A stretch of 64,000 nt of DNA from an uncultured bacterium. Its GTDB lineage: Bacteria > Babelota > Babeliae > Babelales > JABCYS01. The notes beneath the pieces were generated by a model. That model saw nothing but the letters and a program-made list of their open reading frames with translations, was not told the origin of the DNA and ran no database searches. Positions within the stretch are counted from its first letter, which is position 1. Every line of letters begins with the position of its first letter. Where the stretch lies: NCBI GenBank assembly GCA_963705705.1, contig CAVPKK010000007.1, positions 96,001-160,000 on the forward strand, in the 5' to 3' direction. A program made the position numbers and the translations under genes. Shown here piece after piece: positions 23,208-64,000 of the stretch.

Positions 23208-23242
23208 CCGCTCATCCTGAGTTTATCGAAGGATCAGAGCGG
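23208..23242 (+). repeat. Family A palindrome
   Basis: ccgctcatcctgagtttatcgaaggatcagagcgg. Confidence 0.92.
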
Positions 23243-23367
23243 GAAGTAAGCTCGGGTGAACAGAATAAAATGATCCTGTAGATCCGATTATGATGTAAAC
23301 ATAGAACAACTAATCTGCGCGCAGTATACTACCCACACTAAAAATTACCCGACTGGAGAAATGGTTC

Positions 23368-59482: not shown

Positions 59483-59995
59483 GCAAATTTTAGGCACGTA
59501 CCCATTCAAGGTACGTATTCCTTCGAAACATATTCCATTTGAATGACTTAAGTATTGTATTAGAGCATAATCTGGCCGTCAAAAGGCTGGAGGCGCATTT
59601 TTGGTCAAAAATGGACAGGCAAAGAGCTAACTATAGCCAGACTCAGAGCCAATATTGCCTATTTTTTACGAGCTCAGCTTTTTCGCAAAAAATCAATGGT
59701 TTCTTTTCTATATGTGCAAAATGGCCGGGTCAATGCGCTCTCTATTGTTACACGGTGGCAATTTTTGGACGTTTCGGCACTAGTTTTTAAGGAAAAAATG
59801 GGCTGATTTTTGATGTTTTCAATGGCATGGGGTCAAATTTCAATATGGTTATTCGCCCATATACTTACAGGCAACCAGTGAAAAAAGGTCCATAATTAAG
59901 GCCTATGATCGAGTTTGTTATCGAGCACTTTTATATACCGCGCAAATCCGGTACATTTAATAGTAATTAATAAGCCGGGTCTTGGGGGAATTTTA

Positions 59996-62191
59996 ATGGT
60001 TCACAGATTATCATGGTATCTAACAGCCATTGTGTTAGCCGTTCCATTAATCGCGATTGCGCCTGATACAGATATATCAACGGATGAGTCTGCTGCCGAT
60101 GATATTCCTTCGGCGGAACTGGTTGTCTCCTTCAATCAATCGGTAGATGAAAAATTTGTAGAAGATGCAGAAAATTCTCGAGCCCCAAAATCTAGAAATG
60201 CCATATTCTATGCGATAGCAGCCGGTGATTTGGAAGCGGTGCGACAAATTATTATTTTTGATGAGGATGCACTTAATAGAGCATATGAATATAAAGCGAC
60301 TGAAAAATCCTTCGATGGCTTTCATTCAAGCCCCTATAATGGCGATACGCCACTCATCTATTTAGTAAAGACCATCATTGATCTGCACAAAGCATATGAC
60401 TCAAGAAAATTCTCTGATGAATTCACTATCCAACTAGCATTCGAACATCGCTTTACTTTGGTATCTGAGATCTTATTTCATCCCAAAACAATCAGCTCTG
60501 GTGAAAATGCCGATGGACATACGGCTGTTACCTTGGCCGCCCAGGCCGGGCTTGTACGGTTGGCAAACTTGCTTAGCAGCGGAACTCATCCTGCACCCAA
60601 GCAAACTGACGTTAGCCAATTCAAAGCACGGTTAGCAAAATTGGATGTGTCAGCTGAAGTGCGCAAGCGCATTAATGCAGAAATTGATGTGCTCGGCCAA
60701 AAGCATCCGGCTGAACGTGGTTTGCAGATTAATTTCATCAATGCCTTATTGGATTTGCCCTGGGACAAAACAGCTGATACCGCCGTCGACATTGCTACTG
60801 TGCAAGAAGCGCTTGAATCCGAGCATTATGCGTTGAAGAAAGTTAAAGACGCGGTACTTGATTATCTTGCGGTCGCATCGGTGAGCCAATCTCTTGGGAA
60901 AAGCAAAATAATCTGCTTAGTCGGCCCGCCTGGAACGGGTAAAACATCGGTTGTGCAATCAATTGCTCGAGGGCTTAATCGACCATTGGCAAAAGTATGT
61001 CTTGGCGGTGCACATGATGAATCGGTAATTCGCGGGCACAATAAAAGTTATATCAGTGCCACGCCCGGTGAAATTATAAAAGGCATTATTCACGCCAAGG
61101 TAAGAAATCCGGTCATTCTCTTAGATGAAATAGATAAAATTGGGACCAGCCAATATAACGGCAACCCTTCATCTGCCCTACTCGAAGTGCTTGATCCCGA
61201 ACAAAATCATTCATTCATCGATCGCTTTGTCGAAGTACCATTCGATCTTTCAGAATGCCTCTTTATTGCTACTGCCAACTCTAAACGAGAAATTCCTCTG
61301 CCATTGTTGGATCGCTTAGAAATTATTGAAGTGCCTGGTTATTCTTTGGAAGAAAAGGTACAGATTGCGCAAAATTACTTGGTACCCAAAATAATACGGG
61401 AAGCAACATCGACTGAGCTAATTTTTGACATTGGCGAGGATGTAATTCGCTCGATCATAAAAAATTACACATTCGAATCTGGGGTGCGCAAATTGACGCA
61501 GCATCTGAAAACCTTATTTGCCAAGACGGCGCGGCAATATCTAGACAAGCGAACGGTGCCGATCATCACTCCGGAAAATCTTACGGAATATCTAGGACCT
61601 TCATTTAATTTCCCCCGCCTCTCACAGGCGCCGGCAGTGGGCATTGTTAATTGCTTATCAGTTTCACCTGGTTTCGGCGGAGCAACCAGCTTTTTGGAAG
61701 TGGTGTTGGTACCAAATGGAAAAGGTGATTTAAAGGTTTCCAAAGTGCTTGAAAATGATAGTGAAAATGCTGCTGCCATTGCACTGGCCTATGTTCGTTC
61801 ACATGCACAAGAATTAGGTATTTCAGCTTCGCAGCTTTCTTCAAACGATATTCATGTGCACAAACCTGGTATTGGACATGTCGACGGCCCTTCTGCCGGT
61901 ATCGCCAATGTTACAGCCATGGTATCTGCCTTCACCAATAAACTATGTGATCCAACTTATGCTATGACTGGAGAGCTGAGCTTGACCGGTAAGGTGATGG
62001 CCATTGGTGGATTGAAAGAAAAGATTTTGGCGGCCAAGCGTGAAGGCATTAAGAAAGTTATTATCCCGCGTGAGAATGAATCGGAATTATATGATTTTAA
62101 GCAGTTGCTCGATGGTATTGAGATTATACCAGTCAGTGATGTGCGCGAAGTATTAAGTAAAGTTTTGTTACCGAATTCAAGAAAAAGGTAA
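59996..62191 (+). CDS. lon: Lon-family ATP-dependent protease with signal peptide and ankyrin-like N-terminus
   Basis: GPPGTGKT, LLDEIDK, ALLEVLDPEQN, PLLDRLE, DGPSAG, AMTGEL.LTG, GGLKEK. Confidence 0.9.
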   Translation: MVHRLSWYLTAIVLAVPLIAIAPDTDISTDESAADDIPSAELVVSFNQSVDEKFVEDAENSRAPKSRNAIFYAIAAGDLEAVRQIIIFDEDALNRAYEYKATEKSFDGFHSSPYNGDTPLIYLVKTIIDLHKAYDSRKFSDEFTIQLAFEHRFTLVSEILFHPKTISSGENADGHTAVTLAAQAGLVRLANLLSSGTHPAPKQTDVSQFKARLAKLDVSAEVRKRINAEIDVLGQKHPAERGLQINFINALLDLPWDKTADTAVDIATVQEALESEHYALKKVKDAVLDYLAVASVSQSLGKSKIICLVGPPGTGKTSVVQSIARGLNRPLAKVCLGGAHDESVIRGHNKSYISATPGEIIKGIIHAKVRNPVILLDEIDKIGTSQYNGNPSSALLEVLDPEQNHSFIDRFVEVPFDLSECLFIATANSKREIPLPLLDRLEIIEVPGYSLEEKVQIAQNYLVPKIIREATSTELIFDIGEDVIRSIIKNYTFESGVRKLTQHLKTLFAKTARQYLDKRTVPIITPENLTEYLGPSFNFPRLSQAPAVGIVNCLSVSPGFGGATSFLEVVLVPNGKGDLKVSKVLENDSENAAAIALAYVRSHAQELGISASQLSSNDIHVHKPGIGHVDGPSAGIANVTAMVSAFTNKLCDPTYAMTGELSLTGKVMAIGGLKEKILAAKREGIKKVIIPRENESELYDFKQLLDGIEIIPVSDVREVLSKVLLPNSRKR

Positions 62192-62195
62192 GTCG

Positions 62196-62846
62196 ATGAT
62201 GATTACAAGAATAGCTTCTTTAGCCCTTCTGCTAAATATTTGGACCTTACAGGCATCTCCGGTGGTTGCACATAATTTACCGATTAGAAGTTCTAATCAA
62301 AAACTCACGCCAACGGAAATGCTGGCGGTCGGTATTATTACTGCATCACCAAGCTTGGTTGCAACGGCAATAAAGAAAGGCGCCTACTTGCGCGTGCAGA
62401 TAGATCAGTTTGGTGATACACCACTGATGCTTGCCATTCGTGTGTTTGGTCATTCATTGAAAACGCAATTGGAAGCAAAATCAAGCCGTTTACAGAGACT
62501 CTGCAGTTTTGCTTCTGGATTAGTTATTTCCCAATTGCTCATGTGGCAAGGCTCTAAATTTATACCAGACAGATGGCAATCGGCGTATAACATTTTCAAT
62601 CTTGCCGCGCTCGTCGGCCCTGTTGGCTATTATGCCCGTCAATCAATGAAACCCACAATCGCTACCCAACGCGCCGCACGCATTATTCTTATGCTGATGC
62701 AGCAAGATCCTCAGATGAGCCTTCGCAATCATGAAAGCCTCACACCAAAGGATATCCTTGAAGCGTTTTATCCTATCGCCCGTACGCTGCAAAGTGAAGA
62801 ATGGTTTACTTTGCGACGAATCTTCTCGCAGTTGAATGTTGGGTAA
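62196..62846 (+). CDS. Exported/membrane protein with a split ankyrin-like repeat
   Basis: Signal peptide, DQFGDTPLMLAI, two hydrophobic segments, RNHESLTP.D. Confidence 0.6.
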   Translation: MMITRIASLALLLNIWTLQASPVVAHNLPIRSSNQKLTPTEMLAVGIITASPSLVATAIKKGAYLRVQIDQFGDTPLMLAIRVFGHSLKTQLEAKSSRLQRLCSFASGLVISQLLMWQGSKFIPDRWQSAYNIFNLAALVGPVGYYARQSMKPTIATQRAARIILMLMQQDPQMSLRNHESLTPKDILEAFYPIARTLQSEEWFTLRRIFSQLNVG

Positions 62847-62907
62847 TCTAAAATTTAGTCACTTCAGTCTAAATTGAGTCTTGAAAGCTTTGATTCCTTA
62901 ATGTTGA

Positions 62908-63217
62908 TGATTAAGTCTCCTCAGCGCTCATCCTGCATGTCCGCCAAAGCTCATGGAGTTGTAGAAATTCTTACTGACGCAAGGAGACCGCGCTCATCCT
63001 GAGTTAATCGAAGGATATAGCGCGCGAAGGCAAAATGCATCGGCGGAAGTTTATCGAAGGATAAAAGCGCTACAGCGACATTGCCGACCCATAATAAATT
63101 TGTAGTTCCTTTAGTCCTTGAATAAATTTATTCAAAGGAGGAATGATTTTTTTATTGCCGCTTACTATGTCTTCCTCGCGCTCTGATTCTTCGATTAACT
63201 CAGAATGAGCGCGGCGT
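62908..63217. mobile_element. Internally deleted (non-autonomous) copy of the GIY-YIG cassette, with nested palindromes
   Basis: Both arms match 63337-63857; family A copies at 62923-63071 (split), 62989-63024 and 63177-63213. Confidence 0.7.
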
Positions 63218-63336
63218 GGGTATACTGATTCAATAGGTAGAGATGTAGCTAGCCGATGATAAATTAAATTGTAGACCCTTTAAAAGATTGCTATTTAGCC
63301 ATTAAGTAGCTGAAAAATTTATTATTCTTAAGATTT

Positions 63337-63857
63337 TGATTAAGTTTTTAGCGCTCATCCTGAGTTTATCGAAGGATAAAAGCGCTACAGTGATATTGTT
63401 AACCCATAACCAAATCATAAAATCCATCCTTTAACTTATGAATCATTTCTTCGTTTACATCCTTAAATGTAGCAACGGCAGATTTTACACCGGACACACC
63501 GACAACCTCGAACTCCGACTATCCGAACACAAACAAAGAAAAGACCCAAAATGCTATACCGCAACCCGCTTGCCGATCCAATTGGTTTTTCATGCCGTTT
63601 TTGAGTCCCGTGAAGCAGCCTTTAATGCTGAAATGAAGATCAAAGGATGGTCCAGGGAGAAAAAGGAAGCCTTAATTAATGGTGATTGGGAGGAACTGAA
63701 GCGGCTGTCCAATTTAAAAAATGATTTGGCCAATTCGCAATCATATTGGCGATCGATATCGTTTGAGATATTAAAGGATGTATGAATTCATTTATTACCG
63801 CTTACTGAGTCTTCCTCGCGCTTTTATCCTTCGATAAACTCAGGATGAGCGCGGCGT
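63337..63857. mobile_element. GIY-YIG nuclease cassette bracketed by inverted family A palindromes
   Basis: 63350-63386 (+) and 63817-63853 (-) flank a single gene. Confidence 0.7.
63438..63785 (+). CDS. GIY-YIG nuclease (UPF0213/YhbQ-like)
   Basis: FVYILKC...FYTGHT.NL..RL.EH, YT..R.P, A...E..IKGWSR.KKEAL. Confidence 0.93.
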   Translation: MNHFFVYILKCSNGRFYTGHTDNLELRLSEHKQRKDPKCYTATRLPIQLVFHAVFESREAAFNAEMKIKGWSREKKEALINGDWEELKRLSNLKNDLANSQSYWRSISFEILKDV

Positions 63858-63948
63858 TGTATTAGCAGTTTTTAAAATCAAATGAGCAATTAGATTCAAT
63901 ATCATATATACTAGGCGCCTCTAAAAATTATTGCGCACGGTATAAAAC

Positions 63949-64000
63949 ATGAGCGAAAAACTAAAAGATCTTTCCCCCTTTACACCCGATAAAATCCGCA
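63949..64000 (+). CDS. 5' end of a gene running off the window (MSEKLKDLSPFTPDKIR...), possibly a translational GTPase such as LepA
   Basis: Only 17 codons visible; ends at the start of a possible IRN motif. Confidence 0.35.
   Translation, partial: MSEKLKDLSPFTPDKIR

Follow-up and report, generated by a model that had tools for sequence, protein, structure and literature searches.

Near the end of the window, by which is meant the whole stretch of 64,000 nt analysed here (positions 96,001 to 160,000 of contig CAVPKK010000007.1, assembly GCA_963705705.1, from an uncultured bacterium of the Babelota), a small gene for a single-domain GIY-YIG nuclease stands between two inverted, hairpin-forming repeats, and a second cassette with similar arms, devoid of the gene, is found 132 bp upstream. 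The gene, whose open reading frame (ORF) runs from 63438 to 63785 between 35-nt perfect arms, had been recognised in a preliminary description of this DNA and is confirmed here: PF01541 (GIY-YIG) is the sole Pfam family in the 115-aa protein (E 1.3e-14, residues 4-76), and no other NCBIfam model reaches its cut-off on this protein. The residues Y7, Y17, R27, H31 and E65 are invariant in an alignment across 17 homologues. The gene is present as a single full copy in the genome (tblastn), where PF01541 otherwise matches one long ORF on another contig and no second small GIY-YIG gene.

The two arms of the gene cassette (63351-63385 and 63818-63852) are 100% complementary to each other over 35 nt and lie 432 nt apart; beyond these ends, a weaker inverted similarity extends out to ~85 nt, and the inner motif CATCCTTTAA of the left subterminal segment is mirrored at the right end of the cassette. 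A search of the window with the 35-mer arm gave 3 matches at up to 3 mismatches, compared to 0 in 100 shuffles. Besides, the arms, identical at 35/35 positions, have in common a rare variant of the repeat for which no 0-mismatch match exists elsewhere in the genome. They had been announced as inverted palindromes of 37 bp, and the two spans do agree at 35/37 positions; however, each of them is a stem-loop with 14/37 positions self-complementary in register rather than a true palindrome. Two stems make up each stem-loop, GCGC(T) on the outside and ATCCT/AGGAT on the inside, with a DNA fold of -8.8 to -10.2 kcal/mol. The reading of these hairpins as intrinsic terminators was rejected for want of any terminator-like site, no T-run of this kind being found 3' of the hairpins near the gene. 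A promoter-like sequence, TTGTTA-16-TAAAAT at 63396-63423, shows 9/12 matches, the 5 such sites of the region not being significantly in excess of the 2.9 +/- 1.6 counted after shuffling. No clear target-site duplication was seen in the flanks, which were inspected by eye only.

Features of the nuclease locus and of the gene-less cassette upstream of it, in window coordinates
Feature	Position	Strand	Remark
~1-kb block (hairpins, gene-less cassette, gene cassette)	62850-63910	.	absent from the same-genus genome G002
5' half of the split left hairpin, gene-less cassette	62923-62935	+	13/13 identical to 63350-63362
112-bp nested repeat in the loop of the split hairpin	62936-63047	+	holds its own complete hairpin, ~62988-63024
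3' half of the split hairpin plus left subterminal segment	63048-63094	+	42/47 vs 63363-63409; direct-repeat family D3, 89%
Central palindrome, gene-less cassette	63118-63135	.	perfect, 18 nt, at the place of the gene in the other cassette
Right arm, gene-less cassette	63129-63217	+	80% over 89 nt vs 63769-63857, family D1
Left hairpin arm, gene cassette	63350-63386	+	reads CGCTCATCCTGAG...TCGAAGGAT on the + strand
Left subterminal segment	63387-63437	+	weak promoter-like site and inner motif
GIY-YIG nuclease gene, single-domain	63438-63785	+	115 aa, 'type A', apparent sister branch of SsnA
Right subterminal segment	63786-63816	+	weak inverted alignment with the left subterminal segment
Right hairpin arm, gene cassette	63817-63853	-	same motif as the left arm, on the - strand

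The gene-less cassette starts further to the left than first described, at 62923 and not near 62988, its left hairpin being split by the 112-bp insert. The other details given for it stood up to recounting: its left flank (63072-63094) matches 63387-63409 at 18/23 positions, its right flank (63151-63176) matches 63791-63816 at 23/26, and its central 18 nt form a perfect palindrome. The insert is itself a repeat, with a full-length second copy elsewhere in this genome, designated G000 (G000:C5:59550-59662, 83% over 114 nt), and a partial one at C4:37239-37308; the hairpin that it contains folds at -9.9 kcal/mol. The right arm comprises a remnant of the 3' end of the gene, the right subterminal segment and a hairpin in which ATTCT/AGAAT appears as a compensatory variant. 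Most of this cassette (62986-63216) can be folded as one long hairpin of -53.1 kcal/mol with DNA parameters. Since the apparent last codons of the gene are kept in it, a deletion of the gene is a better fit than a site that was never occupied.

Beyond the locus, the hairpin is a dispersed repeat of this genome (1.38 Mb in 9 contigs, 96% complete). A genome-wide count, as suggested in the preliminary description, finds 64 copies of the arm at up to 8 substitutions and 60 copies of a 24-nt degenerate core at up to 2 mismatches, the reversed control pattern giving 0; the generic core CTGAG-N4-TCGAAG is present in 95 copies, again with a control of 0. Over the 60 copies, the conserved unit measures ~40 nt and has a sharp 5' edge, information content amounting to 0.15 bits per position at 10-30 nt upstream, 1.81 in the core and 0.14 at 50-70 nt downstream. 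Their consensus begins CGCGCTCATCC, the head of the hairpin in this genome being CGCGCTCAT, and the variants observed in the stems preserve pairing (ATCCT/AGGAT exchanged with ATTCT/AGAAT, and GCGC/GCGC with CCGC/GCGG). Although crude ORFs cover 90% of the genome, 62/95 generic copies fall outside them. Apart from the locus described above, the copies are single hairpins of ~40 nt: the two-armed gene-less unit is the one such unit in the genome, inward pairs less than 500 nt apart occur twice, both times at this locus, and doublets spaced by ~57 nt were not found in this genome. Several copies are nested, other palindromic elements being inserted inside hairpin loops, after CTG, after CTGAG or after ATCGAA, which suggests that insertion takes place preferentially in the loops.

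The gene and the repeat can be compared across 41 genomes, namely this one and 40 relatives of 0.8-1.9 Mb, with the restriction that related genomes are non-independent samples and that no p-value is attached to the co-occurrence. A gene of the branch of the 115-aa protein, hereafter type A, is detected (E <= 1e-20) in 14/41 genomes, 8/14 of which hold at least 5 generic hairpins. Among the 27 genomes without such a match, at least 5 generic hairpins are found in 4/27 (G002, G014, G020 and G039), with 11 to 20 hairpins each; three of these four have their genus in common with a carrier, and in one such carrier the gene is interrupted by an in-frame stop. The genome-specific form of the repeat, with its 60 copies here, is present once in the same-genus genome G002 and 0-5 times in the other relatives, and is a lineage burst. 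G002, whose LepA is 92% identical to that of the present genome, has no type-A gene, and none of the three nearest relatives has the gene. At the locus itself, the ~1-kb block sits between a 216-aa ORF and lepA, and the distance from the end of the former to the region upstream of the latter is 71 bp in G002 versus 1,103 bp here; a gain in this lineage and a loss in G002 are both compatible with the spacing of these anchors, the upstream region at the lepA site of two family-level relatives being too diverged to read. In the order-level relative G025, 6 type-A gene matches are accompanied by 134 generic hairpins, including 35 doublets of inward CTGAG...TCGAAG hairpins ~57 nt apart (e.g. L167 and L168). 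The inner arms of these doublets are conserved (TGTGCGG ... CCGCACA), while their ~25-30-nt centre varies between copies.

It had been stated for this locus that no characterised mechanism of such a kind was known. The same architecture, however, was published in 2025 for the Ssn system of Neisseria meningitidis (Chenal et al., Nat Commun 2025, PMC11893778), together with the analogy drawn in the preliminary description: its Discussion notes that the NTS-ssnA-NTS unit, where NTS designates the hairpin repeat of Neisseria, resembles an insertion sequence, and likens it to IS200/RAYT (RAYT standing for REP-associated tyrosine transposase) and to the repetitive extragenic palindromic (REP) sequences. 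The principle itself is therefore not new. According to the same source, SsnA is a single-domain GIY-YIG protein of 94 aa assigned to CDD cd10448, which binds NTS solely as single-stranded DNA (ssDNA), on one strand, and cleaves it at a distance of a few bases upstream. Cleavage but not binding is lost in the mutants Y6A, Y17A and E64A, three SsnA homologues act likewise on their own repeats, the enzyme is reported to read an apical sequence placed on a stem of free sequence, and in Neisseria SsnA lowers transformation by NTS-bearing DNA. Ssn-related motifs (SRM) are found on both sides of the homologues in 42% of cases and at least once nearby in 71% (PMC11893778).

Near-exact NTS repeats were found in 17/261 genomes of the same class as the present one, and the core of this repeat is strikingly conserved across phyla, including this distant small-genome lineage. 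In one of them (G152:C5; L103 1192-1500, - strand), an inward NTS pair encloses a small GIY-YIG ORF of the SsnA type with Y6, Y17 and E64, which was reached through the listing of ORFs combined with Pfam rather than through tblastn: the 115-aa protein gave no tblastn match at E <= 0.1 at six NTS-bearing places in related genomes. This ORF, which served as a stand-in for the SsnA sequence CAX49033.1, defines the branch called type B hereafter. Its Y6, Y17 and E64 align with Y7, Y17 and E65 of the 115-aa protein, and are the residue numbers mutated in SsnA (PMC11893778).

A set of 80 homologue loci, 43-62% identical to the 115-aa protein, was fetched from Legionella, Babeliales, Dehalococcoidia, Nitrospirota, cyanobacteria, Bacteroidota and others. 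In the 71 loci with at least 300 nt on either side, the published SRM pattern is on both sides in 0/71, while an inverted repeat scoring at least 18 between the flanks is present in 39/71, and most of the inverted repeats listed for these loci are of one kind, CCGyTCrnCCTGAG...TCGAAGGn. The SRM regular expression was validated by its finding an NTS instance; since it matches nothing relevant here, the definition of an SRM that it embodies does not extend to the present repeat.

The homologues were then divided into branches. An attempt with jackhmmer was abandoned, as the iterated profile took in both branches and left 21 ambiguous rows, and single-pass phmmer scores combined with a tree were used instead. 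Among the small GIY-YIG ORFs of all fetched loci, these scores label 85 as A and 26 as B, with 3 unassigned; 9 A and 4 B were dropped on account of short flanks. In an unrooted FastTree tree of 114 rows, from which fragments and identical rows had been removed, one split (support 0.82) gathers 82/84 A-labelled rows together with 3 later rows and no B row. A CTGAG...TCGAAG hairpin lies within 300 bp of the gene on at least one side in 57/76 type-A ORFs and on both sides in 36/76, which bears out the enrichment of flanking hairpins that had been anticipated for relatives of the gene, and a match to the published SRM pattern flanks 1/76 on one side and 0/76 on both. For type B, the CTGAG-type hairpin is within 300 bp in 0/22 ORFs, and the strict SRM pattern is found on at least one side in 3/22 and on both in 2/22, these counts rising to 6/22 and 4/22 with a relaxed pattern. 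Across the 98 scored loci, the hairpin type thus follows the protein branch, whatever the phylum.

A closer look at 101 distinct hairpins taken beside type-A genes reveals no variation at all in CTGAG and CGAAG, and covariation in the stem underneath. At pair 13:31, CG is found in 46 of them, UA in 42, UG in 7, GC in 5 and unpaired in 1; pair 14:30 is CG in 85, GC in 12 and unpaired in 0. Doubly changed stem cells number 112, compared to 49 +/- 14 after shuffling (0/500 shuffles as high), and pairing holds in 74% of the stem cells, a share that drops to 36-51% once the partner column is shifted. An invariant apex above a covarying stem fits a protein that would read the apical sequence atop a stem of free sequence. 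In addition, some type-A hairpins from other phyla start with GTCAT and end with ATC, as NTS does, so that the two classes of repeats look related.

Compared with Ssn, type A has several traits in common: a single-domain GIY-YIG protein of ~95-115 aa (<150 aa) in which the two catalytic Tyr and the catalytic Glu occupy corresponding places, a gene placed between inverted and oriented hairpin repeats of 20-50 nt that are multi-copy and mostly intergenic, and a widespread, patchy occurrence of carriers in many phyla, with host-associated small genomes over-represented. The proportion of flanked genes is comparable as well, type A here reaching 47% for both sides and 75% for one side or more, versus 42% and 71% for Ssn (PMC11893778). 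By contrast, type A forms a separate clade, and its hairpin core, CTGAG-N4-TCGAAG, differs from the SRM, TTCCCGCG...GCGGGAA. The way in which the published survey treats two species is informative in this respect. In its Supplementary Data 4, Thalassolituus pacificus is entered as NO for SsnA tblastn (E < 1e-10), YES for cd10448 psiblast and NO for CDD >100 (PMC11893778), and its PF01541 matches consist of a type-A gene (50% identical to the 115-aa gene), a YhbQ-like gene and a long ORF, with no type B. Sphingobium subterraneum, in which both branches are present, has YES throughout. Type A would therefore lie outside or at the edge of the Ssn family as the paper defines it and, with T. pacificus as a proxy, be at most peripheral to cd10448. 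The T. pacificus entry and the comparison with the NTS-flanked SsnA-type ORF both suggest that the 115-aa protein would fall short of the homologue threshold of that survey, a BLAST hit to SsnA at E < 1e-10 with 75% cover. On these sequence grounds, the locus appears to belong to an Ssn-like sister branch with a CTGAG...TCGAAG hairpin of its own, rather than to be a plain Ssn member by the criteria of that paper. In the literature covered, which leaves out subscription journals and the figures of PMC11893778, whose tree and repeat alignments may already show this branch, no paper was found that prints the CTGAG...TCGAAG core or ties it to a GIY-YIG gene.

Altogether, it is likely that the 115-aa protein is a stand-alone GIY-YIG endonuclease of a type-A sister branch of Ssn, and that the hairpins flanking its gene, along with the 60-100 hairpins of the genome, are its cognate recognition repeats; the five transposase families searched for in the genome, none of which was found, offer no other candidate enzyme. 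The idea that a GIY-YIG nuclease placed where a RAYT would be expected recognises or nicks the hairpins, put forward in the preliminary description, finds its ground for the family in the Ssn biochemistry (PMC11893778), and for the present locus it is supported by the strict correspondence of hairpin type to protein branch and by the co-occurrence of gene and repeat among relatives. By homology with SsnA, the type-A enzyme would bind the folded hairpin on one strand only, 5'-CGCTCATCCTGAG...TCGAAGGAT-3', when the DNA is single-stranded; it would read the invariant apical CTGAG-N4-TCGAAG above a stem of unconstrained sequence, and would cleave the strand on the 5' side of the hairpin, a few bases away from it. 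As both arms read inward, the predicted cuts would fall just outside the edges of the cassette, one per strand, and such cuts at the outer edges would fit the sharp 5' boundary of the repeat. The gene plus its arms may then be viewed as an insertion-sequence-like cassette, gained in this lineage with the burst of hairpins and with one gene-less derivative. The cuts may restrict or trim ssDNA, as in Neisseria, or start the copying of hairpins and cassette, and the biological role might accordingly be sought in the control of recombination or of incoming DNA, or in selfish spread.

Several observations weigh against this assignment. Firstly, the partnership of gene and hairpin is incomplete: 6/14 type-A carrier genomes have fewer than 5 generic hairpins, and 19/76 type-A genes have no CTGAG...TCGAAG hairpin within 300 bp. 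The loci scored for hairpin type, like those used for counting orientations, were moreover selected for holding a homologue and include duplicates (L008/L084 and L103/L112), and the label 'A' of the score set takes in at least 2 rows outside the main A clade. The orientation of hairpins beside type-A genes is biased without being fixed, with 48 '+' and 21 '-' upstream and 43 '-' and 32 '+' downstream. Secondly, the link to Ssn is remote in sequence: the 115-aa protein is 32% identical to the NTS-flanked SsnA-type ORF (pairwise E 4e-11), and the published SRM search sequence has 0 matches at the four arms here and 1 in the whole genome. The protein is in fact about as close to the UPF0213/YhbQ-type proteins, whose function is unassigned, as to the SsnA type, a UPF0213-like seed from Legionella scoring on type-A ORFs about as well as a type-B seed. 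Finally, the GC skew around a hairpin does not predict its orientation (odds ratio 1.04, p = 1.0) and there is accordingly no sign of a replication-strand effect, skew being possibly a poor guide in this genome; the binding of ssDNA by type A, its cleavage and the position of the cut are themselves transposed from SsnA by homology, and should be taken as predictions.

A further reading, which is that of the preliminary description, makes the nuclease the enzyme that mobilises the hairpins, i.e. a GIY-YIG counterpart of RAYT with its REP repeats and their doublets (REPIN), whose cuts would set off the movement of single hairpins, doublets and the gene cassette, either by copying or by excision followed by re-insertion. 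Such an activity is a minority prospect, though one of some weight. The insertion-sequence-like geometry with an adjoining gene-less derivative, the burst of 60 copies here versus 1 in the same genus, the empty site in the same-genus genome, the hairpin elements nested within the loops of other hairpins, the sharp 5' boundary common to the 60 copies, and the 6 type-A matches of G025 along with its 35 inward REPIN-like doublets would all be in line with it. So would the outcome of the searches for five transposase families. The preliminary description speaks of no transposase in the window; in the whole of the 96% complete genome, no RAYT or IS200-type transposase was found, Y1/RAYT PF01797 giving no match at E <= 1, and IS110 PF01548, TnpB PF07282, rve PF00665 and DDE_Tnp_1 PF01609 giving none at E <= 0.01, with the caveat that insertion sequences are often lost at contig ends. 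Nevertheless, bursts and empty sites tell that DNA moved and not which enzyme moved it, no target-site duplication was seen by eye in the flanks, and four genomes harbour 11 to 20 hairpins without a type-A gene. The GIY-YIG domain cuts and is not known to rejoin strands, so that repair or replication by the host would have to finish the process; GIY-YIG enzymes are not known to form a covalent DNA intermediate for strand transfer. In addition, the sole function tested for Ssn is the restriction of incoming ssDNA, not transposition (PMC11893778).

The comparison with REP and REPIN can be specified as follows. Here too, a single-copy nuclease gene stands between inverted copies of a dispersed extragenic hairpin, and G025 has doublets; unlike in RAYT systems, the enzyme is of the GIY-YIG and not of the HUH/Y1 type, and the hairpins lack the GTAG head by which RAYT-linked REPs are defined (PMC3733652). 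A large class of oriented palindromic repeats, the CGTC-headed REPs, was also described there without any dedicated transposase being found (Di Nocera et al. 2013, PMC3733652). The Neisseria NTS starts with CGTC like these, whereas the hairpin head in the present genome is CGCGCTCAT. With its inverted repeats at the ends, its derivative devoid of the gene and the site that is empty in a same-genus genome, the unit also has features of insertion sequences and of miniature inverted-repeat transposable elements. Nested, hairpin-forming short repeats in small host-associated genomes recall the Rickettsia palindromic elements and the Neisseria intergenic mosaic elements, a likeness that concerns the repeats alone, as a partner gene is identified here.

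Homing endonucleases of the GIY-YIG type, either free-standing or carried by introns, are well established as a class, and the nuclease gene could in principle be a selfish gene of that kind, for which the hairpins would be landing sites instead of element ends: a long palindromic element with its arms back to back would be the target, and the gene would invade its centre. The gene-less cassette has indeed both arms, with its 18-nt perfect palindrome exactly at the place of the gene, and it is situated only 132 bp from the gene copy. This scenario is nonetheless improbable, given that a single two-armed gene-less unit exists in the genome among single hairpins of ~40 nt, that the apparent last codons of the gene kept in this unit point rather to a deletion, and that the DNA-binding domain of homing GIY-YIG enzymes such as those of the I-TevI/Seg type is missing from this one-domain protein (NCBIfam TIGR01453, 18.5 bits compared to a cut-off of 56.05).

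That the hairpins would be REP-like intergenic elements acting in transcript stability or termination, next to an unrelated UPF0213/YhbQ-like housekeeping nuclease by chance, would agree with the placement of 62/95 generic copies outside ORFs, with the UPF0213 nature of the nearest solved structures and with the hairpins missing near some type-A genes, but is highly improbable in view of arms identical at 35/35 positions in a rare variant with no other 0-mismatch copy, of a hairpin type that tracks the protein branch across phyla, of a gene that the three nearest relatives do not have and that is part of a block absent from G002, and of the lack of any terminator-like T-run after the hairpins. 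The solved structures in question are those of BH0048 (PDB 1zg2, E 5e-14) and EF2693 (PDB 1ywl, E 2e-9), the similarity extending over ~80-90 residues; at the place where type A has CYTATRLP, the UPF0213-like proteins seen here have G-x-G-x-KYTR.

The locus bears on two questions left by the Ssn work, namely the number of enzyme/hairpin pairs and the mobility of the gene-plus-hairpin unit (PMC11893778). With regard to the first one, it points to a second branch whose hairpin is another one and very widespread, and which escapes both the search pattern and the criteria for homologues used in that paper; were the enzyme active, it would offer a new specificity of ssDNA cutting. As for the second one, the same-genus empty site, the gene-less derivative, the nested hairpins, the lineage burst and the five transposase families not found provide clean comparative evidence for the insertion of such a unit, and a single small gene with a substrate of 40 nt would suffice to put the question of mobility to the test. 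A broader proposition, held with still more reserve and rather doubtful, is that type A constitutes a second family of hairpin-specific ssDNA nucleases, spread over many phyla, which may mobilise one of the hairpin repeats most widespread in bacteria, CCGyTC-stem-CTGAG-N4-TCGAAG-stem. In that case, a cut-only nuclease would start the copying of repeat and cassette, host replication or repair would finish it, and DNA would move without a strand-transfer enzyme of the transposase type.

A few minor observations deserve mention. The annotated C-terminal tails of many homologues (...STSSPRT... and ...AQGER..., alignment columns 95-138) look like translated flanking hairpin, the protein ends thus running into the repeat, and here the right subterminal segment contains the last codons of the gene. 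A 1.7-kb contig, on which lies a type-A gene with 57% identity to the 115-aa gene, was binned as Nitrososphaera, an archaeon (L057), which points either to a cross-domain transfer or to a binning error. The genome of Legionella worsleiensis contains 15 PF01541 matches; the eight loci examined there (L083-L090) include small GIY-YIG ORFs from at least 3 branches (type A, type B and UPF0213-like), several of the matches have in-frame stop codons, and the published SRM pattern is near none of these loci. With 15 matches from at least 3 branches, picking by elimination the L. worsleiensis 'ssnA homologue' listed in the table of PMC11893778 failed.

Within the window, a stretch at 23256-23306 (-) was considered as a decayed second copy of the gene and attributed to chance, its 17 aa, which lack a start codon, resembling the nuclease N-terminus at no better than E 1.2; it is intergenic, between Nth-like and XerC/D-like genes, and lies beside a hairpin at 23208-23242. 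The three Rfam matches obtained in 62800-64000, to plant miRNA and snoRNA families and far below threshold, were treated as artefacts of the long hairpins. On the upstream side of the locus, the 216-aa ORF, which has no Pfam family, comes after a gene for a Lon-type protease of 758 aa (59915-62191, +), whose product has AAA and Lon_C domains and a weak ankyrin-repeat match in its N-terminal part.

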